NCBI GenBank assembly: GCA_049903315.1
Contig: JBNGBT010000004.1
Coordinates: 160,001 to 224,000, forward strand
DNA: 64,000 bases
DNA from: Candidatus Cloacimonadota bacterium
GTDB lineage: Bacteria; Cloacimonadota; Cloacimonadia; JGIOTU-2
Direction of reading: 5' to 3'
This document shows positions 6,136 to 61,477 of the stretch, in pieces; the first letter of the stretch is position 1, and each line of letters opens with the position of its first letter. Under the pieces are notes generated by a model, which had not been told where the DNA came from, ran no database searches, and saw only the letters and a program-made list of their open reading frames with translations. Position numbers and translations under genes: made by a program.

Positions 6136-9100
6136 ATGTTTAAAAAAGTTCGTGCTCGATATTGGAGCACTATAATGATAATTTTTCTTTTTGTTATATT
6201 ATCAACAACCTCAATAGCAGCACAAAATACAAAGCACATGTTGCATGCGGTAAAAGATACAATACTTGTTGCTTCAGAACCGAGCTATCCACCATTCTGC
6301 ATCGTGGATGAGGACGGGAACGCAGATGGTTTTTCTGTAGATCTCATAAAAGCTGCTGCAGAAGTGATGCATCTCAATATTAAGTTCAAGGTAGGTCCAT
6401 GGGCTGAGATCAAACAAGAGCTGGTAGAAGGAAAGATCGATGCCCTGCCATTGGTTGGACGTTCACCGGAGCGGGAAGCAGTCTATGATTTCACTTTTCC
6501 TTATCATATTATGAATGGGGCTGTATTCGTACGAAAAGGAACCAAAGGCATCGAAACATTGGGCGATCTGAAGCATAGAGATATCGCAGTCATGAAAGGA
6601 GATAATGCACACGAGTTTGTCGCGAGGGTGAAATTATCCGACAAGATACACACTACACTGACCTATGATGTTGCTTTCCAGGAACTTTCTGAAGGCAAGT
6701 ATGATGCGGTCATTGCCCAGCAGCTCATGGGATTGCAACTATTAAATGAACTAAATATTCAAAATGTACAAGCCCTTGATATTGAACTCACGGATTTCAA
6801 CCAGGATTTCAGCTTTGCAGTGCAAGAAGGTAATAAAGAACTTTTAGCAGTTTTGAATGAAGGATTATCAATAATAGTTGCGAACGGAACGTATGATGAA
6901 TTGCATAAAAAATGGTGGTCACCCATCACTATAAGCGGTCTATCAACCAAAGAAAAAATCACAATGCTTCTGCCCTATATTATCAGTATTATTTTTATCA
7001 TAGCCATTATTGCCATAGTAGTTTTGGAAATACGGGTAAAGAGGAGAACACGCAAGCTTCGGAAGGAAATTGCTGTACGCAAACAAACAGAAATAGCTTT
7101 AAAAGAAAGCGAAGAGAAGTATCGAAATATTTTCGAGAATGTGCTGGATATGTTCTTTGAGGTGCGCCTTGATGGTGAAATCATTGATGTGAGCCCTTCA
7201 ATTCAGGAGCTGTCTTACGGTCAATACAAAAGAGATGATCTTATCGGCAGATCAATGTATGATTTGTATGCGGATCCGGCTATGCGGGAGGTATTTCTAG
7301 AAGCTTTGCAAAAGCAGGGAAGTGTGGCTGATTATGAAATTATATTCAAAAATCGGGATGGCTCTGAAGTTCCCTGTTCTATCTCTGCACGCATCCAGTG
7401 TGATGCGCAGGGCACACCCACGAAGATAATCGGCAGTATGCGTAATATCACCGAACGAAAAAGGGCAGAAGAAGAGCTGAAGAAAATTGAATGGCTGCTC
7501 GAAAAAGAAAAAAAGGAATCCTCAAAAATAGCAAAGAATTATATTCCAGATTACGGAGATGTAACCAAACTCAATACGGAAAGGACAATTCTGGATAATG
7601 TGGGAGCAGACACATTAAAAACCCTGTGCTCTGACATCATGGATTTGCTGGACACCTCGATTGCGATTTATGAAAAAAATGGTGATTATGCCTATGGTCA
7701 GTTTGACTCAAGGTGGTGTCAGACAATGGATATAGCGTCTTTTCGGTTATGTAAAACGCAGGACAATAAAGAAGCTCTGAGTTGCGGTAAATGGTTATGT
7801 CATGAAAATTGCTGGAATGACTCGGCAAAAGAAGCGATCATTACACAAAAAACAACAGATATTGAATGTGTCGGGGGAATTCATCTATACGCAGTTCCAA
7901 TTTTCGCAGGTAGAGAGTTAGTTGGCGTTATCAATATGGGCTACGGTAATCCTCCAACCGAAGAAAAAAACTTAATAGAACTGGCCGAAAAATTTCACGT
8001 CGAATATGAAGTTTTGGACGAGAATGCAACAAACTACAGAGCCCGACCTCCTTTTATTATCGAAAATGCCAAAAAGCGTTTACAAACCGTAGCACAACTC
8101 ATTGGCAAAATTGTAGATAGTGCGGAAAAAGAAAAGCAAATTAAAGAAAGCGAAGATTTCCTTAATCGAACAGGAGAAATATCCAGAGTAGGCGGTTGGC
8201 AGCTTGCAGATAATTTTACACGGGTAGAATGGACAAAAACAACCGGAGATATTCATGAACTTTCTGAAGGGGTTTATCCTACTTTAGAAGATGCGATCAA
8301 CTATTACCATCCAGATGACCGCGATAAGGTTAATAAAAGCGTTTCTGATGCAATTGAAAAAGGCAAGCCTTTTGATTTTCAAACCAGATTGATAACCGCG
8401 AAAGGAAACTTACGCTGGGTAAGGGCAATAGGTTGTCCTGAAATGAAAAATGGAAAATGTGTCCGGCTTTCCGGAACATTCCAGGATATTACTGAACATA
8501 AACAGGCTGAAGAGAAACTAGAAGCAGCTAAGGAAAAAGCTGAAGAAAGCGAAGCCCGTTTGCGTGATGCCCAGAGAATTGCCAATATCGGCAACTGGTC
8601 CTTAGATCTGCAAACTGGAAGAGTCGAAATGTCTGACGAAATGTTAAACCTTAACGGACTGAAAGATAAGAACGAAGCTTTAGATGTAGCGAATCATGAG
8701 AAATTCTATACACCAGAAAGTTGGCTTCGGTTTGAAAAAGCTGTAGAGACATGCAGAAATACAGGTAAAAGTTATGAAATCATAATGGAATTTTCTGATA
8801 AAAATGCTGAATTCCGTTATGCGGTAGCGAGAGGTGAAGCGATTAATGATGAGAATAACAACATCATAGGGCTAAAAGGTACTCTTCAGGATATCACCCA
8901 GCGCAAACGGGCGGAAGAAGAATTAAAGATCAACCGTGAAAGGTTAAAAACTGCAAGCTCCATCCTTCGCCACGATATCACAAATGATTTGACTGTGATT
9001 AAAAGTGCGGTTGATATATATCGTGAAGAACGTGATGAATCCATGATCGATGAGATTGAGAAGCGCGTATGGAAAAGCATAGAAACCATACAAAATCAGC

Positions 9101-53524: not shown

Positions 53525-53581
53525 AGAACGTATAGAAATGTAGCACAAGATTCCGATCTTATGTAAGTAAAAGAGATAGTC

Positions 53582-53771
53582 GTTCATTTTCTCCTTGATG
53601 AGAAAACGAACCAAATGAATCACACGCTGATCAAGAAAACACTAAAATTTCATTCATTCAGCTAAAAGAAAAGAACTTATTCTTCCGACACTTCGGAAGA
53701 ATTCAAACAGCTTTCCTTTTTTAACACCTCATTCACAAAATTTCTTAACGTGTTTTCTTAATAGGCGGGAA
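53582..53771. repeat. 190-bp non-coding repeat B, copy 1 (MITE/REP-like)
   Basis: GTTCATTTTCTCCTTGATGAGAAAACGAACC...TTCTTCCGACACTTCGGAAGAA...TAGGCGGGAA; direct copy at 54052-54241. Confidence 0.9.
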
Positions 53772-54051
53772 TGGATAAGAAAAAATCAAATCCTCTCTAA
53801 ATAAGGGGAGTACGCCAACTGGCGGATACATCATCGCAGGTAAAGCCCAAAGAGATAGTTGCATAATTTAATAATGAAAATTCTAAAGAAGTAAAAATAC
53901 TCATGAATTTTAATCAATCGAAATTGAGAAATTATTGAAAAAGTAACGCATGATTCCAATCTTGCGCGATTCATAACTGAACTGAACACATTAATTATAA
54001 CGATGAGTCGGGTAAATAGTTGGAATTGAAATATAACTGAAAGATAATTAT

Positions 54052-54241
54052 GTTCATTTTCTCCTTGATGAGAAAACGAACCAAAAGAATCACCCGCTGA
54101 TCAAGAAAACACTAAAATTTCATTCATTCAGCTAAAAGAAAAGAACTTGTTCTTCCGACACTTCGGAAGAACTCAGACAGCTTTTCTTTTTAAACGCTTC
54201 ATTCACAAAATTTCTTAACGTATTTTCTTAATAGGCGGGAA
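54052..54241. repeat. 190-bp non-coding repeat B, copy 2
   Basis: Same length as copy 1 and highly similar, with scattered substitutions. Confidence 0.9.
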
Positions 54242-54359: not shown

Positions 54360-54919
54360 TTATTTATACAAATTTTTCATTCGCTGCAGAAGTTCATCAT
54401 TTTCAAGTAAGGCAACAGAATTTGTAATCTGATTTACTGATCCGATTTCAGATTTTATGTGCAGAATGGCTTTGTTCTTTATCTGTTTTTTTTATATGTC
54501 TTGCAAAAATTCCACCATTAATAACGAGATATGGTCTATCATAAAATTCAGTGACTTTAACTTTAAGGGGCTTGGTAATTTTTAAATTATTGTGCATGTG
54601 TGCAATACTTTCATATGCTTTCGAGAGATATTTTTCTCTTTCTTTCCAATTTTCAGAAGAGATAATTTTGTGGAAAAGAGGAGTGAGTTCTTTTGCTGAT
54701 CTTAATTGTGCCAAAGCAGTTCCAAACCATTTGCTGTAAGGCACATATTCTTTTTCCATTAAAAAGCAAAGTCTCATGAGTGACTGGACTAATCGAGCAG
54801 CAATAATGCGAGAACCTAACTCATCCTCCGCATCTCCGCATCTGCCGACAAAAGGTTCCTCTTCAGCAATGTTAGTCCATTCCGATGCAAGAAGGTAAAG
54901 CCAAATATCATGAGGATAA
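54360..54919 (-). pseudogene. 5'-truncated, frameshifted DUF4037-family gene fused to the last attC-like site
   Basis: YPHDIWLYLLASEW...EEPFVGRCGDAEDELGSR...YVPYSKWFGTA; an extra A in the A8 run (54486-54493) hides the natural end IGSVNQITNSVALLENDELLQRMKNLYK*. Confidence 0.8.
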
Positions 54920-55039
54920 TGTTTTGCGCATACGGCGGAATCAGCAGGATTCCGTCGTAAAACGAACAGCCAAACACCTGAGCCGGAAGGTTCAGGCAAA
55001 AAGCACTGACCAAACCAACTGACGACACGGCTGTTACAC
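54914..55039 (-). repeat. attC-like site 6 (distal)
   Basis: + strand GGATAAT-GTTTTGCGCATACGGC...CCTGAGCC-GGAA-GGTTCAGG...GACGACACGGCT-GTTACAC. Confidence 0.88.
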
Positions 55040-55162
55040 GAATTTTTAGTTATTAATCTCGAAAGAATTAGAAAAAAGCTAACCCTGGTAGCTGACTGGG
55101 ACAATGCCCCAGCCAACGACAGCACCTCGCTCTCCAAATAAATGGAGATCCAGGGAGTTGCT

Positions 55163-55981
55163 TTATTTTCTACGAATTTCATCTATTTGTTTTTTTGCGC
55201 AATGTTTTTTTTTCATCGAAAGACCATCACATATTTCAAAATTATCATTTCGCCATTCAATTTGATTGAAATTTGAAGTTCCTGGCACTTCTGAACCAAG
55301 GAAATACCTTTTATTATTATGAATAATGCCAAAATTTATCGAAGCAGAATCCGGTTTTCTATATAAACCAATTAGTTGTGGAGAACCTCCACAGTTTTTA
55401 TCTCTTATATTAAATAAAGTATCACAAAAACAATGAAAGACATTTCTACTGGTGCTTTTATTTACACCCTGTTGATATCTTTTGTAGTTCTCAATAAATT
55501 CTTGTCTACCAGAACCGAGAACAAATAGTAAATCTGATTGCATAGGCAAATTCATTGTTTCTCTTTTAGAAGTAATTGAGTTTGACCAAGTCATTTTATA
55601 ACATTTGAAATTAGGATAATTATTAACAATTGTGTCTCTGGTAATGTGCATTATGTTTACGATGTTACTTACCAATTTCGGATATTTTGAAAAAGAATGT
55701 GATATTTTTTCGAATACAAGTTTGTTTTTTTTATCACAATTTAGGGTTTTTGTAAAAAGAATATTGGAATCTATCATCTCGATTATTTGAGATAATACTA
55801 TTGATGGAAATAACACATCGCCAGAATAAGCTAATATTTCAGGATATTCTTTTGAGGAAAAAACTTTTTTACCATAATCAAATTTGGTTGTACTATTCCA
55901 TGTAAACCGGCTATCGCCAGCAATATATGCTGACGTTGGTCCGTGTGTGTCAACGCCTAACCAAGAAACGATTAAGGTCAC
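55163..55981 (-). CDS. Cassette 6: putative Ntn-hydrolase (proteasome-beta/HslV-like) protein
   Basis: GTG at 55981 after GGAG gives M-T-L-I-V...AGDSR: Thr2 and a DSR motif, later GSG and GGSPQ. Confidence 0.6.
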   Translation of the reverse strand: MTLIVSWLGVDTHGPTSAYIAGDSRFTWNSTTKFDYGKKVFSSKEYPEILAYSGDVLFPSIVLSQIIEMIDSNILFTKTLNCDKKNKLVFEKISHSFSKYPKLVSNIVNIMHITRDTIVNNYPNFKCYKMTWSNSITSKRETMNLPMQSDLLFVLGSGRQEFIENYKRYQQGVNKSTSRNVFHCFCDTLFNIRDKNCGGSPQLIGLYRKPDSASINFGIIHNNKRYFLGSEVPGTSNFNQIEWRNDNFEICDGLSMKKKHCAKKQIDEIRRK

Positions 55982-56009
55982 TTTTATCTCCAACTAATTA
56001 CAAAATTTC

Positions 56010-56133
56010 GTGTAATGTTTTGCGTGTGCGGCGGAATCAGAATGATTCAGCCGAGACAAACAGCCCAAACCCTGAACCGGAAGGTTCAGGACAGAAGCAC
56101 TGACCAGCCCTACAGCCGACACGCTTGTTAAGT
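56010..56133 (-). repeat. attC-like site 5
   Basis: GTGTAAT-GTTTTGCGTGTGCGGC...CCTGAACC-GGAA-GGTTCAGG...GCCGACACGCTT-GTTAAGT. Confidence 0.9.
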
Positions 56134-56136
56134 GCA

Positions 56137-57168
56137 TCAATCCAAAACATCTCTTCCACTTGTATAAGTAACTTCAATTGTTTCATTGAAAACTAATTTT
56201 TGGCTATCACTTGTAAATGATCTTGCAGAAGAAGCCGGAGTTTCAGATAATAATGTTATTTGATCAGTTACCATATCCCAAACCATGAATTTAGAGAACT
56301 CATCTATATAGGCAAGTTTATTTCCGTCAGGAGAGATTTTAGGAAAGGTTCCTGAGAATAAATGTGAAACGGAATAGTTAGATGTATTGAGTAGATAAAT
56401 TTCATCATCGTCCTCAAAAACAACTTTTGATCTATCTTCGCACATTGATAATTGTATTAAAAATCCTTCATAAATGTATTGATTATTAGTACCATCAGTA
56501 TTAATTACATAGATACCTGGTTCAGAGAAGTATTTGCCATTTACATAGATAAGAGTGTTTTCATCAATCCAATCAACAGATGAATATGAGTTTTCCGATG
56601 AAAATTCAGAATCAACTACTACATCGATGTAACCGTCTAAATTGCGAAATTTAAGTGACCAAAGAACACTGTCTGGTAGCTCAAAATAATGTTTCTGAAT
56701 ATATGCAAAATATTCATAATTTGGTGATGGTTTTACATAACCTTCTACGATAGAATCAGTATTTGTTAGAACCTCAACAGTTCCAGATTCAATCGAACCT
56801 AAATAAATGTCACAATCAATTGAAGTTGGACCCCAGAAGATTATTTTGTTTAAATTTGGGAACAACTCAAAATCACTAATATCGTAATTGGTTGTATCAG
56901 TTGGTAGGATAGTATTTATACTTAAAGTGTTTAAATCGAGTGAAACAATTTGATCATAAGGGTAACTAATCTTAGTTTTATGTAGGATTTTTGAGTTATT
57001 ATCATAAAAAATAGAATGTCCTGCACTATAATCTGTGAGTTGAATTTTGTTTGTACCATCGCAATTAATCATTGTTAGATAGTCATAATAGTAAGTTTCA
57101 GTTATTGGTTCACAACCAATTATAAATAGAACTAATACAACCGAAATGCTATAAGCTAAATATTTCAT
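56137..57168 (-). CDS. Cassette 5: TolB-like/PD40 beta-propeller lipoprotein
   Basis: Lipobox IIGC; repeats such as PKISPDGNKLAY, FTSDSQKLVF and IYVINTDGTN; stop codon lies inside the cassette inverted repeat. Confidence 0.75.
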   Translation of the reverse strand: MKYLAYSISVVLVLFIIGCEPITETYYYDYLTMINCDGTNKIQLTDYSAGHSIFYDNNSKILHKTKISYPYDQIVSLDLNTLSINTILPTDTTNYDISDFELFPNLNKIIFWGPTSIDCDIYLGSIESGTVEVLTNTDSIVEGYVKPSPNYEYFAYIQKHYFELPDSVLWSLKFRNLDGYIDVVVDSEFSSENSYSSVDWIDENTLIYVNGKYFSEPGIYVINTDGTNNQYIYEGFLIQLSMCEDRSKVVFEDDDEIYLLNTSNYSVSHLFSGTFPKISPDGNKLAYIDEFSKFMVWDMVTDQITLLSETPASSARSFTSDSQKLVFNETIEVTYTSGRDVLD

Positions 57169-57193
57169 TCCTTTTACTCCATACTTTTGATGC

Positions 57194-57317
57194 ACTTAAT
57201 GTCTTGCGTATGCGGCGGGATCAGAATGATCACGCCAAAACAACCAAGCAAACACCTGAGCCGGAAGGCTCAGGACAAAAGAACCGAAAAGCCCAACAGC
57301 CGATACGCCTGTTACAG
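57194..57317 (-). repeat. attC-like site 4
   Basis: ACTTAAT-GTCTTGCGTATGCGGC...CCTGAGCC-GGAA-GGCTCAGG...GCCGATACGCCT-GTTACAG. Confidence 0.9.
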
Positions 57318-57353
57318 GCAGTTTAAGATGAAATATTCTACACATAATTTAAA

Positions 57354-57866
57354 TCACCAGATATATTTGCATCTTACAAGGTATTTTACACCTTCATCAG
57401 TAACTGTATATGATTTTCGTCTTTTCTTATTAATAAATCCATCTAAATATCCATTATCTTTTAAATATCCAAATGCAATTAGTGTTTTAAGATATGCAGT
57501 TATTGTTGATTCTTTGAAACCTACCGCTTCGGCATATTTATCTTTAAAAAAACAAGGTGCTTCGTTCGTTAACAAAACAAATAAAAGTCTTCTTAGGTGT
57601 TTTTTATTTGGTAGTTTTAATTTACGATTTTTATATAAGCAAATAGAGGTGTAGACAAGTGATAGAATTACAAAACACATTAATATTATTGATAATCTCA
57701 ACATTGGTAGTGATATTTTACTGTGTAACGATAACTGCTGTAATAATTTTGAGAAAAATGGGAAAAATTGAAGACCTGAAGGAGATAAAATTGGGATTAC
57801 TATTTGTAGGATTGATACAATATCTCTCCATGTTAATTTGTTGTTATTTTTATCTTTTTCACTCAC
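57354..57866 (-). CDS. Cassette 4: membrane protein with C-terminal winged-helix-like domain
   Basis: Two hydrophobic segments, then YAEAVGFKESTITAYLKTLIAFGYL...YTVTDEGVKYL. Confidence 0.65.
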   Translation of the reverse strand: MSEKDKNNNKLTWRDIVSILQIVIPILSPSGLQFFPFFSKLLQQLSLHSKISLPMLRLSIILMCFVILSLVYTSICLYKNRKLKLPNKKHLRRLLFVLLTNEAPCFFKDKYAEAVGFKESTITAYLKTLIAFGYLKDNGYLDGFINKKRRKSYTVTDEGVKYLVRCKYIW

Positions 57867-57908
57867 TTCATCCTCTCAATTAAAACAATAAAAAAATACA
57901 GCAACTGC

Positions 57909-58034
57909 CTGTAATGTTTGGCGTGTGCGGCGGAATCAGAAGGATTCCGTCGTAAAACAAACAACCCAAACCCTGAACCGAAAGGTTCAGGCAAAACACA
58001 CCACGAAACCGAACAGCCGACACGCTTGTTAAAC
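57909..58034 (-). repeat. attC-like site 3
   Basis: CTGTAAT-GTTTGGCGTGTGCGGC...CCTGAACC-GAAA-GGTTCAGG...GCCGACACGCTT-GTTAAAC. Confidence 0.9.
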
Positions 58035-58061
58035 GCATATATCATAAAATTTCACCGAAAC

Positions 58062-58712
58062 TCAATTACGAAAATAATCTGAATCAGCCAAGATTATTTG
58101 CTTATTCGTATGAAAAATTCCTGTAACATTTGTATATATTTTTGAAATTACTGGTGGAGGATAATTTGTTTTAATTAAAAAAACAACCCAACCATTATTC
58201 TCACTAATTTGATTTCCTCTCCAGTTAAACTTTTTCCCATTATCATATAATCCTTTTCCACCTGTAAAATTAGAACTTGATCTTCGATACTCATAATTTA
58301 TTGAATCAACAGGTTGTTCAAATATTAGAGTAAATTCAAAATTATTAATTGGTTTTTTAGTAATGTTTTTGAAACCAAGCTCATAATATTTATTTGTATT
58401 TTGGTAGGGTTGAGGATTTTTAATTTTTTGATAGAACAATTCATATTTGGGAATAGAAACATTGTCTTCAGAGTTTTCAAAATTGTAGTTAATTATTACA
58501 TCACTATTATCACCTTCCGTTGAAATTGCAGGTGAGAAAGAACCATCTGTAGTATTATGTATTTCCTTATACTCATCTTCTTTTGGATTAATAATGAATT
58601 TAGTTACCAGAGTTAATGCGAATGATATTATTGCTAAATAAGATACAAAGACAGTTATCTTTGTTGGAAAACTCCAAGCTTTCCATTGTTTTCTTGAAGG
58701 AATAAATTTCAT
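58062..58712 (-). CDS. Cassette 3: hypothetical protein with N-terminal TM anchor
   Basis: 216-aa ORF filling the cassette; one hydrophobic helix near the N-terminus. Confidence 0.75.
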   Translation of the reverse strand: MKFIPSRKQWKAWSFPTKITVFVSYLAIISFALTLVTKFIINPKEDEYKEIHNTTDGSFSPAISTEGDNSDVIINYNFENSEDNVSIPKYELFYQKIKNPQPYQNTNKYYELGFKNITKKPINNFEFTLIFEQPVDSINYEYRRSSSNFTGGKGLYDNGKKFNWRGNQISENNGWVVFLIKTNYPPPVISKIYTNVTGIFHTNKQIILADSDYFRN

Positions 58713-58746
58713 TTATCAACCCCACAAAACTCAATAATTAATATGC

Positions 58747-58871
58747 GTTTAATGTTTTGCGTGTGCGGTGTGATCGGAACGATCACGCCAACCCAAACAA
58801 ACCAGCCGTTTGAATCGTAAGATTCAAACAAAGAGCACTGACCAACCCGAACAACGACACGCCTGTTAGGC
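58747..58871 (-). repeat. attC-like site 2
   Basis: GTTTAAT-GTTTTGCGTGTGCGGT...GTTTGAATC-GTAA-GATTCAAAC...ACGACACGCCT-GTTAGGC. Confidence 0.9.
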
Positions 58872-58880
58872 ACATTTTAC

Positions 58881-59522
58881 TTATGTAGAAAAATCAAGTT
58901 CCTGAGATCTTGTATATGATTGTGCTCTGGGAATTGATATTGGTATATTCTGAATTATGGGATTATTTTTTTGAGGTTCATAAATTATTGATAAATCAGC
59001 ATTAACAGGTAACAAATTGGAACTAATTTCATGTGTTAAACCATAGTCTTTTGCTTCAGTCGGATTAAGTGTAGTTCGATTATTCATGTCCTCGAATATT
59101 TTATCGGTTGATTTTCCTGTATTGTCAGCTATAACTCTTGCAATATTTAATTGATCAATTTTTAATCCATTTAAGTGTTCTTCTATTTGCTTTTCGTCTA
59201 AGCTAACGTTACCATTGAAATTAAATCTTACTCCATGAAGAAGGAACCTTGAGTGGGGAACTGAAAAACGTTTTTCTCCAGCGCAATAAATTACAACACC
59301 AATTGAATCAACGCTACCAAAATTATACGTGTCAATTTTTATTGGAGCTCCTTTGAGATAGTTATAAATGGACAGACCATGAAAGACAGAACCTCCTGGA
59401 GAAGAAATCATTAAATGTAGTTTTTCAAATTTTTGAGCGATTTTTTGATCAATTATCCGTAATAGTTGATCACTTGTTTGCGGAATTACGGGAGCCATAA
59501 ATCTAATGTAACATTCTTTCAT
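58881..59522 (-). CDS. Cassette 2: ClpP-family serine peptidase
   Basis: ISSPGGSV, VDSIG (Ser), RFLLHG (His), EAKDYGL. Confidence 0.85.
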   Translation of the reverse strand: MKECYIRFMAPVIPQTSDQLLRIIDQKIAQKFEKLHLMISSPGGSVFHGLSIYNYLKGAPIKIDTYNFGSVDSIGVVIYCAGEKRFSVPHSRFLLHGVRFNFNGNVSLDEKQIEEHLNGLKIDQLNIARVIADNTGKSTDKIFEDMNNRTTLNPTEAKDYGLTHEISSNLLPVNADLSIIYEPQKNNPIIQNIPISIPRAQSYTRSQELDFST

Positions 59523-59553
59523 TTTACTTTACCTCCAATTTTTTTTTAAATGT

Positions 59554-59679
59554 GCCTAATGTTTGGCGTGTGCGACGGGATCGGAACGATCACGCCCAAA
59601 ACAAACCGACCAGCCGTTTGAATCGGAAGATTCAAACAAAGAGCACTGACCAACCCTACTGCCGACACGCTTGTTAGCT
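59554..59679 (-). repeat. attC-like site 1 (proximal)
   Basis: GCCTAAT-GTTTGGCGTGTGCGAC...GTTTGAATC-GGAA-GATTCAAAC...GCCGACACGCTT-GTTAGCT. Confidence 0.9.
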
Positions 59680-59774
59680 ACATCTTTTTCTATTTCAATT
59701 ACTTACATTTTAAACTTATTTAAGTAAAGAATTTTATTGTTGTTCTTGGATAAATGGGTGTCATAATTAATTCT

Positions 59775-60248
59775 TCATTTTTTTATCTGAAACCATTCTG
59801 ATTCAATTTTACCTTGTGGATAAAAACCTTTGTAAGGCGACCCAGGCATATTTATAAATGGCGAGTGCATATATATAATGTCTCCAATTAATTTAAAGCT
59901 ATATTTGCCTTTGATTGGGGCAATTACTTTATATTTGTCAGGATAATTGAAAATTGTGAAACCCTGTTTAGTCGGTAATAAACGTTTTTTTTTGAGCTTA
60001 TTATTTTCATTTTTATAAAGAATAAAAAGATTTGACGAATAATAAAAATCAGGATTATCAATTCCTTTAATATCTACAGAAAAAGTTAGAGTATCTAATT
60101 TTGTGGAAATGTCAGAAGTTATTAAAGAAATACTTCTATGTTTATAAAGATTCGAGATATAATTATAACTTACTTTAGTATTGAAGTTATATGCACATGA
60201 AGATAACAAAAATAAGAAACACGCTGATTTTAATAATTTTATTAGCAT
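59775..60248 (-). CDS. Cassette 1: hypothetical lipoprotein
   Basis: Lipobox LSSC after a short signal peptide; very AT-rich. Confidence 0.7.
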   Translation of the reverse strand: MLIKLLKSACFLFLLSSCAYNFNTKVSYNYISNLYKHRSISLITSDISTKLDTLTFSVDIKGIDNPDFYYSSNLFILYKNENNKLKKKRLLPTKQGFTIFNYPDKYKVIAPIKGKYSFKLIGDIIYMHSPFINMPGSPYKGFYPQGKIESEWFQIKK

Positions 60249-60299
60249 ATTATTAACCTAAAAATATTTTCCAATTCTCCATCCATTTCATTTAGATGT

Positions 60300-60400
60300 A
60301 GCTAATGTTTGTATACCCGACCAAAAGGTCGTGTATATTACGATTAAATTTCCTATAAGGTCGTATACAATACAATATATAAGTTATATACGAACTTGTT
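60300..60400 (-). other. attI-like recombination site
   Basis: Shares TAATGTTTG with the repeats, then diverges into palindrome TAAT-N5-TATACCCGACC-AAAA-GGTCGTGTATA-N5-ATTA, plus inverted pair AAGGTCGTATA / TATACGAACTT. Confidence 0.65.
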
Positions 60401-60412
60401 TTAATTATGAAA

Positions 60413-61477
60413 TTATGTTTCATCTAACTTCAAATTATCCAATGGACTTTTAATTTTGTTTCTTGCTGTATGTGTAACATGGGTATATATCTCTGTTGTT
60501 CTTGAGCTTTTGTGCCCTAAAAGTTCTTGAATATACCTCAAATCAGTCCCATGCTCCAATAAATGAGTAGCAAAACTATGCCGTAAAGTATGTATTGAAG
60601 CATGTTTCTTTACTCCAGATTTGTTTACAGCTGCTTTAAATAATTTTTGTATTACTCTCCTACTGAATTGTTCTCCGTATTTGCTTTCAAACAGCCATTT
60701 CTTTGGTTTATAAACCTTATAATATGTTCTTAGTAAATCTAATACGGTATCTGAAAGAATGCCGTATCTATCCTTGTTGCCTTTTGCGCTTCGAATAAAT
60801 ATCTGTTTTCGATCAGAATGAATGTCGGATATTCTCAAATGTACAACTTCTGTTAAACGTAATCCTGCAGAATAGATCAAATAGATAATACATTTATATT
60901 TCAGGTTCTTGACCTGTTTCAATATTTTTGTTACTTCTTCCTCGCTTAGAACTTCCGGTAGCTTTTTTTCTTTTCTTGGTCGAGGAACGTAATATTTTTC
61001 AACAGGTTTTCCCAGCACTTTTTCATAATAAAACTTTATACTGTTTATTGCTTGATTCTGTGCAGAAGTGGAATATTTCTTCTTATCTACCAGGTATAAC
61101 AAATATTTACGGATCTGTTCATGTGTGATATCTTTCAATTTAGTGTTTTGATAATATTTTAAAAACCGCTGAAAATGAAGACGATAAGTTTTAATGGTTG
61201 CGTCACTATAGTTTTTCAATTTCAAAGTTTCAATGTATTCAGAAGGGAAATCTAGTTTTGTATCAGTATCTTCTATGAATTCTAATTTACCTTTGAATTT
61301 CGTATGTAAAACACTAATGATATTTTTTTGATAGGGGATATGCCAGAACTTATTTGAAGCAGACCACTTTCTGCCTTCTATCTGTTTAATCTGTCTAATC
61401 GTATTTATGTCATAATCAAACAGTAGAGCAATACGTCTCTGCTTATCAATCAAATATTCCTTAGTCTTTATCTGCAT
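60413..61477 (-). CDS. Tyrosine recombinase, integron-integrase-related (N-terminal extension + SAM-like + catalytic domain), lacking the IntI insertion
   Basis: YSAGLR, AKGNKDR, HTLRHSFATHLLE, IQELLGH, TTEIYTHV, SPLD tail; catalytic R-K-H-R-H-Y all present. Confidence 0.93.
   Translation of the reverse strand: MQIKTKEYLIDKQRRIALLFDYDINTIRQIKQIEGRKWSASNKFWHIPYQKNIISVLHTKFKGKLEFIEDTDTKLDFPSEYIETLKLKNYSDATIKTYRLHFQRFLKYYQNTKLKDITHEQIRKYLLYLVDKKKYSTSAQNQAINSIKFYYEKVLGKPVEKYYVPRPRKEKKLPEVLSEEEVTKILKQVKNLKYKCIIYLIYSAGLRLTEVVHLRISDIHSDRKQIFIRSAKGNKDRYGILSDTVLDLLRTYYKVYKPKKWLFESKYGEQFSRRVIQKLFKAAVNKSGVKKHASIHTLRHSFATHLLEHGTDLRYIQELLGHKSSRTTEIYTHVTHTARNKIKSPLDNLKLDET

Follow-up and report, generated by a model that had tools for sequence, protein, structure and literature searches.

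Within a 64,000-nucleotide (nt) stretch of a Candidatus Cloacimonadota contig (JBNGBT010000004.1 of assembly GCA_049903315.1, positions 160,001 to 224,000; hereafter the window), the minus strand between positions 54917 and 61477 carries a tyrosine recombinase gene, an attI-like junction, six cassettes of 715-1184 bp with a single open reading frame (ORF) each, and six repeats of 118-120 nt, all on one strand. The best explanation of these sequences is an integron-like gene-capture platform run by a tyrosine recombinase that is related to the integron integrases (IntI) but lacks their characteristic insertion, I2. The arrangement works like an integron and lies outside the canonical definition on four points: the integrase has no IntI insertion, the sites lack the GTT triplet, their spacers have other lengths, and their bulge sits elsewhere. 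The sites end in ATT, a base change that, judging from the loci compared, most likely alters which sites pair with one another rather than how the enzyme reads DNA.

Architecture of the sites and of the mobile unit

The TAAC start and AC-ATTA end that the initial annotation had described are present in all six repeats and, counting the attI-like junction (A at 60306), at seven of seven junctions, and the last 12 nt of all six repeats are free of GTT, as had been claimed. Sites 1-5 likewise show the described spacers of 2 and 5 nt and the single unpaired base: AAC is followed by 2 nt and by arms of 6 and 4 bp, and on the ATT side the extra base splits the matching arm after 6 bp and a 5-nt spacer leads to ATT, while site 6 (54917) is decayed and its arms are mismatched. 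The GCGTGT-CGGC arm is one of 13 arm sequences that share this geometry. Three further sites in the genome, on contigs C69, C20 and C71, also read AAC...ATT, and all nine sites found in this genome keep AAC and have ATT in place of GTT. The claimed departure from canonical attC geometry was also borne out: beyond the ATT core with its unmatched AAC, the unpaired spacers measure 2 and 5 nt versus 5-6 nt per arm, and, in place of extrahelical G16 and T23/24 on L'', one base bulges from the L' (cut) arm after 6 bp (canonical values from PMC5027507). Past the core, 11 bases follow a consensus common to ATT and GTT sites (a purine, then G-C-A-A-T at positions 5-9), from which the R box extends, at all cassette junctions, to 9-13 bp of complementarity versus the canonical 7.

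The AAC/ATT-plus-bulge geometry is not a product of chance, because it recurred when the core bases were left free. In 69 loci searched without fixing the core base or the last base of AAC, 53 of 61 candidate hairpins belonged to it and none was AAT/ATT; in 20 further loci, where neither the spacer length nor the base preceding the core was fixed either, it made up 12 of 82, the next class reaching 3. An early boundary detector that had no hairpin requirement was swamped by chance pairs. The site on C20 (L290, a 5.6-kb contig) follows an 858-residue ORF and measures 43 nt, below the 57-141 bp range of attC; it probably belongs to another array that was split during assembly.

Core, spacers and bulge had been bundled as one signature by the initial annotation, and all three are real, but they separate on comparison: the 2/5 offset is family-wide and includes GTT sites, and only ATT and the bulge are specific to the lineage. 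In 305 kb lying downstream of homologs at 159 distinct loci, the counts of AAC...GTT hairpins were 13, 19 and 5 at spacers of 1/4, 2/5 and 3/6, versus 1, 1 and 1 in a control of 218 kb upstream, and the canonical 5/5 cell held 3, which is the background level. This 3-nt offset is common to the whole recombinase family, the GTT sites of Bacteroidota included. When 232 Cloacimonadota genomes were searched without specifying the core base, a first arm pattern matched 146 times in 40 genomes, with 136 ATT, 2 GTT and 1 TTT among the 139 matches listed, and a second matched 231 times in 65 genomes, with 138 ATT and 2 GTT among the 150 listed, 8 of the 12 non-ATT matches coming from families at control level. 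For comparison, A follows C before TTA at 8768 of 22553 places in this genome. ATT plus bulge is a lineage-wide cassette trait of Cloacimonadota. The bulge occurs in all 60 distinct ATT sites of 43-134 nt that were compiled by requiring AAC, C before the core, and the offset (top-strand C in 58, T in 2), whereas most of the 40 GTT-type sites compiled pair on without a bulge after 6 bp. Free-core-base counts were unusable in Bacteroidota, where one pattern stood at control level and the other matched 2 of 301 genomes, and the GTT assignment there therefore rests on loci adjoining integrase homologs. A pattern scan of viral contigs gave eight matches, seven of them chance-like and one (L207) resembling the GTT type, and was not used.

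Each cassette can be delimited from its own ends. The 10 bases past each TTA are the reverse complement of the end of the same cassette at 9 or 10 of 10 positions, and over the six window cassettes this amounts to 55 matches, the best of 720 pairings (runner-up 50). All six consist of one ORF and a downstream site, with a core complementary to their own inverse core. Such complementarity marks the cassette units and cannot by itself pick which end of a site holds the exchange; it is the array ends and the single cassettes that place the crossover at the ATT end, in agreement with the initial annotation. Ahead of gene 1 stands a conserved attI-like sequence without a site, and a full site comes after the last gene; in the single cassettes on C69 and C71 the gene has a site on its downstream side alone, the polarity seen in the window. 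Canonical attC sites read on the plus strand, with inverted ORFs and crossover at the plus-strand G|TT, had been named as the outcome that would speak against this assignment. On the plus strand a site does end in GTT, with a spacer of 5 nt and one additional G in its first arm, and own-start/own-end complementarity taken alone does not distinguish the two ends. Under that reading, however, the integrase-proximal gene must have lost its site exactly at AAT and carry the conserved attI-like sequence instead, in many homologs, and the polarity of C69 and C71 is equally contrary, which makes it extremely improbable.

The A or G of the triplet belongs to the upstream element, as a cassette may start at G|TT and end in ATT, and the fourth base follows the cassette's own end; the exchange is therefore placed within A|T|T|. 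Comparison of these junctions shows the mobile unit to be TT-gene-site-A, with the exchange lying between the A/G and the fourth base, while the exact cut point would, by analogy with IntI, be A|TT. As in canonical integrons, the attI-like site adjoins the integrase gene and holds the start of the first cassette. Short direct and inverted repeats lie upstream, and close homologs have a matching position and layout past the integrase stop codon.

The recombinase and the proposed folding of its sites

Against the TIGR02249 integron-integrase model the recombinase scored 227.9 bits, under the cut-off of 265 and in two stretches. I2 is missing, with 21 residues between the aligned blocks versus 64 in VchIntIA (2A3V), a judgement made from the 2A3V alignment and the TIGR02249 score. 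The top Foldseek match of the modelled recombinase is nonetheless 2A3V, in a comparison that used an alignment-based model with a predicted local distance difference test (pLDDT) score of 85, a single-sequence AlphaFold model (pLDDT 37) having been discarded. The catalytic residues R, K, H, R, H and Y are invariant in 34 of 34 aligned family members, as are the equivalents of VchIntIA Y26, K160 and H271, which have been named as cleavage-site residues (PMC2811028). An extra N-terminal domain of about 70 amino acids (residues 1-70) contains conserved tryptophans and matches HARP in 10 of the 34 members, the window protein not being among them. The best phmmer matches are XerA proteins, NF040815 was narrowly passed (221.1 vs 220), and other tyrosine recombinases are present in this genome. 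The closest homologs come mostly from Cloacimonadota, where 44 of 232 genomes hold a homolog, and homologs are widespread in Bacteroidota. The window locus has the traits of this I2-less family, with a recombinase co-oriented with its array, an attI past its stop codon, and sites with the 3-nt spacer offset. Several of the homologs have much longer open frames upstream. One Cloacimonadota family carries two such recombinases in tandem ahead of a G|TT attI in many genomes (G053:C46 13230-15740, G216:C3 9985-12027, G223:C56 5517-7468, G212:C93 2518-4469 and others); the members of the pair form separate well-supported clades, which is reminiscent of XerC/XerD.

Taken together, we regard as the probable mechanism an IntI-style exchange of one strand between a folded bottom-strand site and a duplex attI, with a cut at AA|T and docking that tolerates a T·G pair. 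The bottom (non-coding) strand of each site would fold into a hairpin and be cut at AA|T, the analogue of AA|C in IntI, one strand would be exchanged with the double-stranded attI, and replication would resolve the junction. Strand choice and blocking of a second cut have been assigned to L'' extrahelical bases held by I2 (PMC4792948, PMC5027507), and both are absent here. With less assurance, we suggest that the spacer asymmetry takes over these tasks: on the cut strand the distance between cut and L arm would stay at the canonical 6 nt, whereas the other strand, 3 nt short, would misplace the scissile bond of the second monomer and might thereby make the top-strand fold a poor substrate. The lineage-specific bulged purine (bottom-strand G in 58 of 60 sites) may add to strand choice.

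Signs of folding are found in the arms. Comparison of 16 short sites finds both partners altered in 8 of the 10 arm pairs, and the covariation score of 0.514, which kinship of the sequences inflates, was reached by none of 500 shuffles, while slid controls stayed at or below 0.056. Non-Watson-Crick arm pairs are bottom-strand G·T 71 times versus 2 on the top strand in the 60 ATT sites and 24 versus 3 in the 40 GTT sites, and both the core and the next position are bottom-strand G·T in 60 of 60 ATT sites, counts that derive from about five columns of related sites and are not independent. Folding of both strands, which the initial annotation had proposed as a check, gave a divided result. Short sites fold, with a predicted arm-helix probability of 0.91 on the bottom strand and 0.83 on the top, but in sites longer than 83 nt the mean is 0.18 on the bottom versus 0.25 on the top and the bottom strand is ahead in 6 of 35, because inner hairpins compete.

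Recombination in the manner of Xer, on double-stranded DNA with the inverted arms serving as a protein-binding duplex and no hairpin, would suit an enzyme without I2, the domain that accommodates extrahelical bases (PMC4792948), and would suit both the XerA proteins among its best matches and the poor predicted folding of the long sites. We nevertheless consider it very unlikely, as the 13 arm sequences retain pairing rather than sequence, mismatches favour one strand, and short sites fold so readily on the bottom strand. The partner sites, moreover, have no common overlap sequence: attI spacers differ in sequence from site spacers, and the identical central region of 6-8 bp that Xer/dif partners share is absent.

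The first core base and the choice of partner

In IntI1, the first core base docks on the partner site without base-specific contact, an ATT x ATT cross recombines at the wild-type rate, and mixed crosses fall to about 3e-3 of wild type (PMC2811028, Table 4). The same work describes the GTT triplet as common to all characterised integrons and as kept only since partners must match at one base. From its primer table we infer that the published mixed crosses each hold a C·A mismatch, both cores having been changed. In the single-strand exchange proposed here, the first base of ATT would likewise be the docking base. Through the retained inverse core AAC, the docking position on the folded bottom strand would be occupied by a G, able to take C as a Watson-Crick partner or T as a wobble, and the ATT site's own T would dock on A or wobble on G. 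With either an A|TT or a G|TT attI, an ATT site would thus make a single Watson-Crick pair plus a wobble, while a GTT site meeting an A|TT attI would need a C·A mismatch. With AAC kept and docking through the wobble, ATT cassettes may therefore enter both kinds of attI without any change of protein.

The genomes fit the predictions of this wobble model for ATT sites at both kinds of attI. ATT cassettes stand at A|TT attI-like junctions in 9 cases (the window, C69, L086, L098, L182, L199, L244, L273 and L276) and at G|TT attI-like junctions in 11 (L099, L196, L224, L225, L243, L248, L254, L279, L288, L277 and C71 of this genome), of which only L099, L224 and L225 adjoin an integrase gene, the others being attI-like by resemblance. 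The integrases of these three belong to a separate clade with 100% support in a quick tree of 110 of 191 ORFs, from which ORFs below 215 amino acids and most of those without an attI call were left out. The third prediction, that GTT sites are disfavoured at an A|TT attI, is suggested more weakly; in L271 an A|TT attI-like site is followed by a cassette whose own site is a degenerate one of the GTT type, and the scarcity of GTT cassettes in these loci is biased, the loci having been chosen by ATT-type arms.

The initial annotation had taken ATT to signal a different recognition code, and this part of it found no support. Direct reading of ATT by the integrase clade, sites and integrase having co-evolved as a private pair, does have the attI cores on its side: read by eye, those of the 18 integrases in the close clade (at least 72% identity) comprise 12 ATT, 2 GTT (L083 and L088) and 4 unread or unlabelled, so that 12 of the 14 confidently read are ATT versus 1 of 69 called outside the clade, where the other 68 are GTT. 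L221, probably a third close-clade G|TT attI, is among those left unlabelled. S230, N234 and A139 are among the residues fixed in the close clade and rare elsewhere, and the near-invariance of ATT in cassette sites is hardly expected from drift alone. Direct reading is nonetheless unlikely. No well-aligned integrase column separates the 12 ATT-attI proteins from those of L083 and L088, although these are two proteins only, and the separate well-supported clade with G|TT attI carries the same ATT cassettes. The close clade itself has only 91% support in the Shimodaira-Hasegawa-like approximate likelihood ratio test (SH-aLRT) of the quick tree, and the base is unread in IntI structures (PMC2811028). 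A different structural code relative to IntI, with no I2 and an asymmetric spacer, is likely. Locus L221 (G163:C220) additionally shows a gene-less element of about 125 nt, ending in GTT, between the probable G|TT attI and an ATT cassette.

A further alternative is that ATT on both partners creates an exchange group closed off from GTT pools in both directions, as in the IntI1 mutants. The low rate of the mixed IntI1 crosses and the rarity of GTT in these genomes (2 of 139 and 2 of 150 among the matches listed) speak for such insulation, but 11 ATT cassettes start at G|TT attI-like junctions, the GTT-type cassette of L271 starts at an A|TT attI-like site, and the published mixed crosses contain a C·A mismatch that arises from changing both cores, whereas natural sites retain AAC. 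We rate it as a little less likely than direct reading of ATT by the enzyme. A more far-reaching extension of the wobble model is conceivable, though we hold it only tentatively and think it the less likely outcome: the arrays may represent an undescribed second class of integron, in which hairpins are recognised without I2, the lopsided 3-nt spacer picks the strand, and the T·G wobble of an AAC/ATT pool, to which the cassettes of Cloacimonadota would have shifted as a whole, acts as a one-way valve. ATT cassettes would then enter A|TT and G|TT platforms alike, and A|TT platforms would disfavour foreign GTT cassettes through the C·A mismatch.

Several observations weigh against hairpin exchange with wobble docking as we propose it. 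Beside the poor folding of the long sites and the shared ancestry behind the G·T counts, the six modelled circle junctions of the window have bottom-strand arm-helix probabilities of 0.00-0.41, and compared with the bottom-strand minimum the proposed fold costs an extra 1.4-2.6 kcal/mol at sites 1-5 and an extra 13 at site 6. Contigs from four sequencing runs, three of them possibly the source of this DNA, matched the array and contained no excised or reordered form of it. An AAC/ATT site, which would give a wobble-only cross, is not among the crosses of PMC2811028, and results from IntI1 may not transfer to this family. Most of the G|TT junctions are identified by resemblance, as stated above, and an attI may also have changed from A to G after a cassette had entered.

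Known systems, array contents and further loci

Canonical integrons (class 1, VchIntIA/VCR) resemble the window locus in having an attI-like site next to a tyrosine recombinase, cassettes of a single ORF that all lie on one strand, a site downstream of the gene with inverse core AAC, a cassette start that complements its own end, and perhaps bottom-strand folding, of which the arms show signs. They differ from it in their IntI insertion and lack its extra N-terminal domain. Treponema-type integrons, whose intI points toward attI and is co-oriented with the array (PMC3607928), have AAC/GTT sites and IntI integrases, unlike the ATT sites, asymmetric spacers and insertion-free recombinase found here. 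The engineered ATT attC/attI1 pair of Frumerie et al. (PMC2811028) shares the A for G at the first core position of both partners and worked with unchanged IntI1, but its attC is AAT/ATT, whereas the natural sites are AAC/ATT. Xer/dif systems (XerA, XerC/D) share a catalytic domain without the IntI insertion and differ in lacking a cassette array and in having partner sites with like spacers. Loci of I2-less recombinases in Bacteroidota agree in protein family, orientation, attI position and 2/5 offset, and differ in their GTT sites, mostly without a bulge after 6 bp.

The IntI insertion has been called 'not fully conserved' in an integron-like subgroup (PMC8138268), where members of the I2-less family may sit unnamed. 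Few integrons have been reported in Bacteroidetes (PMC9024848), and in the displayed places of the supplements of a published integron paper Bacteroidetes occur only as In0 rows. We found no description of natural ATT cores, of this geometry or of I2-less arrays in the literature covered, which did not extend to subscription journals and bioRxiv supplements. Such arrays have probably been missed, because the IntI domain and the usual attC shape are what standard integron searches look for (PMC4889954). The recombinase family that serves the sites lacks the domain held to be needed where sites are hairpins. A natural, lineage-wide switch to ATT with AAC retained makes the idea of one-base partner matching (PMC2811028) directly testable, and AAC/ATT sites predict a wobble-docking rule that goes beyond the published crosses. 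If the one-way valve were true, a lineage in nature would be controlling its horizontal gene capture through one base. Orthogonal or one-way cassette sites would be useful for engineering.

Table 1. Features of the recombinase locus and cassette array, in window coordinates.
Feature	Position	Strand	Remarks
Tyrosine recombinase, 354 aa (amino acids), IntI-related	60413..61477	-	PF00589 and PF13495; co-oriented with cassettes
attI-like site, core A|TT, A at 60306	60296..60400	-	108 nt past integrase stop; cassette 1 begins here
Cassette 1, 746 bp	59560..60305	-	ORF 59775-60248, 157 aa, no family
attC-like site 1 (TAAC...ATTA)	59557..59676	-	
Cassette 2, 807 bp	58753..59559	-	ORF 58881-59522, ClpP-like protease family PF00574
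attC-like site 2	58750..58868	-	
Cassette 3, 838 bp	57915..58752	-	ORF 58062-58712, 216 aa, no family
attC-like site 3	57912..58031	-	
Cassette 4, 715 bp	57200..57914	-	ORF 57354-57866, 170 aa, no firm family
attC-like site 4	57197..57314	-	
Cassette 5, 1184 bp	56016..57199	-	ORF 56137-57168, ~343 aa, no family
attC-like site 5	56013..56130	-	
Cassette 6, 1096 bp	54920..56015	-	ORF 55163-55993, 276 aa, no firm family
attC-like site 6, decayed	54917..55036	-	Arm mismatches; proposed bottom-strand fold 13 kcal/mol above minimum
DUF4037 gene, 5'-truncated, starting at ATT of site 6	54448..54919	-	PF13228

None of the six window cassette proteins has a firm match in PHROGs or PADLOC, and by eye the N-terminus of the cassette 5 protein is lipoprotein-like. 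Rfam gave three weak, chance-level matches in the window, none of them at the repeats. The PF13228 match of the DUF4037 gene, the sole one in the genome, runs from profile position 33 of 101, at window position 54927. That this remnant starts at the ATT of site 6 is consistent with recombination at a secondary site; an uninterrupted allele was not found, the search for its 5' part having been made without a close full-length homolog as query.

Elsewhere in the genome, C69 has a single cassette, and its protein is matched by a DUF4238 model (PADLOC, 1e-53). The cassette lies at an integrase-less attI-like site (L081:7100-8380; also L270 and L271) that is conserved in the genus and reads ATT here and in G009 and GTT in G008, and insertion at a random chromosomal ATT was dropped as an explanation when relatives showed this site at the same place. 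C71 (L291:3944-7315) carries a single 3.4-kb cassette with a 1056-residue ORF, which starts at a short attI-like G|TT remnant and ends in an ATT site; its right junction, ATTATCC, resembles the DUF4037 junction in the window. An unrelated repeat of 211 nt, possibly a small non-autonomous element, occurs in the window in two copies that are 91% alike (53561-53771 and 54031-54241), with more on contigs C11, C22 and C4.

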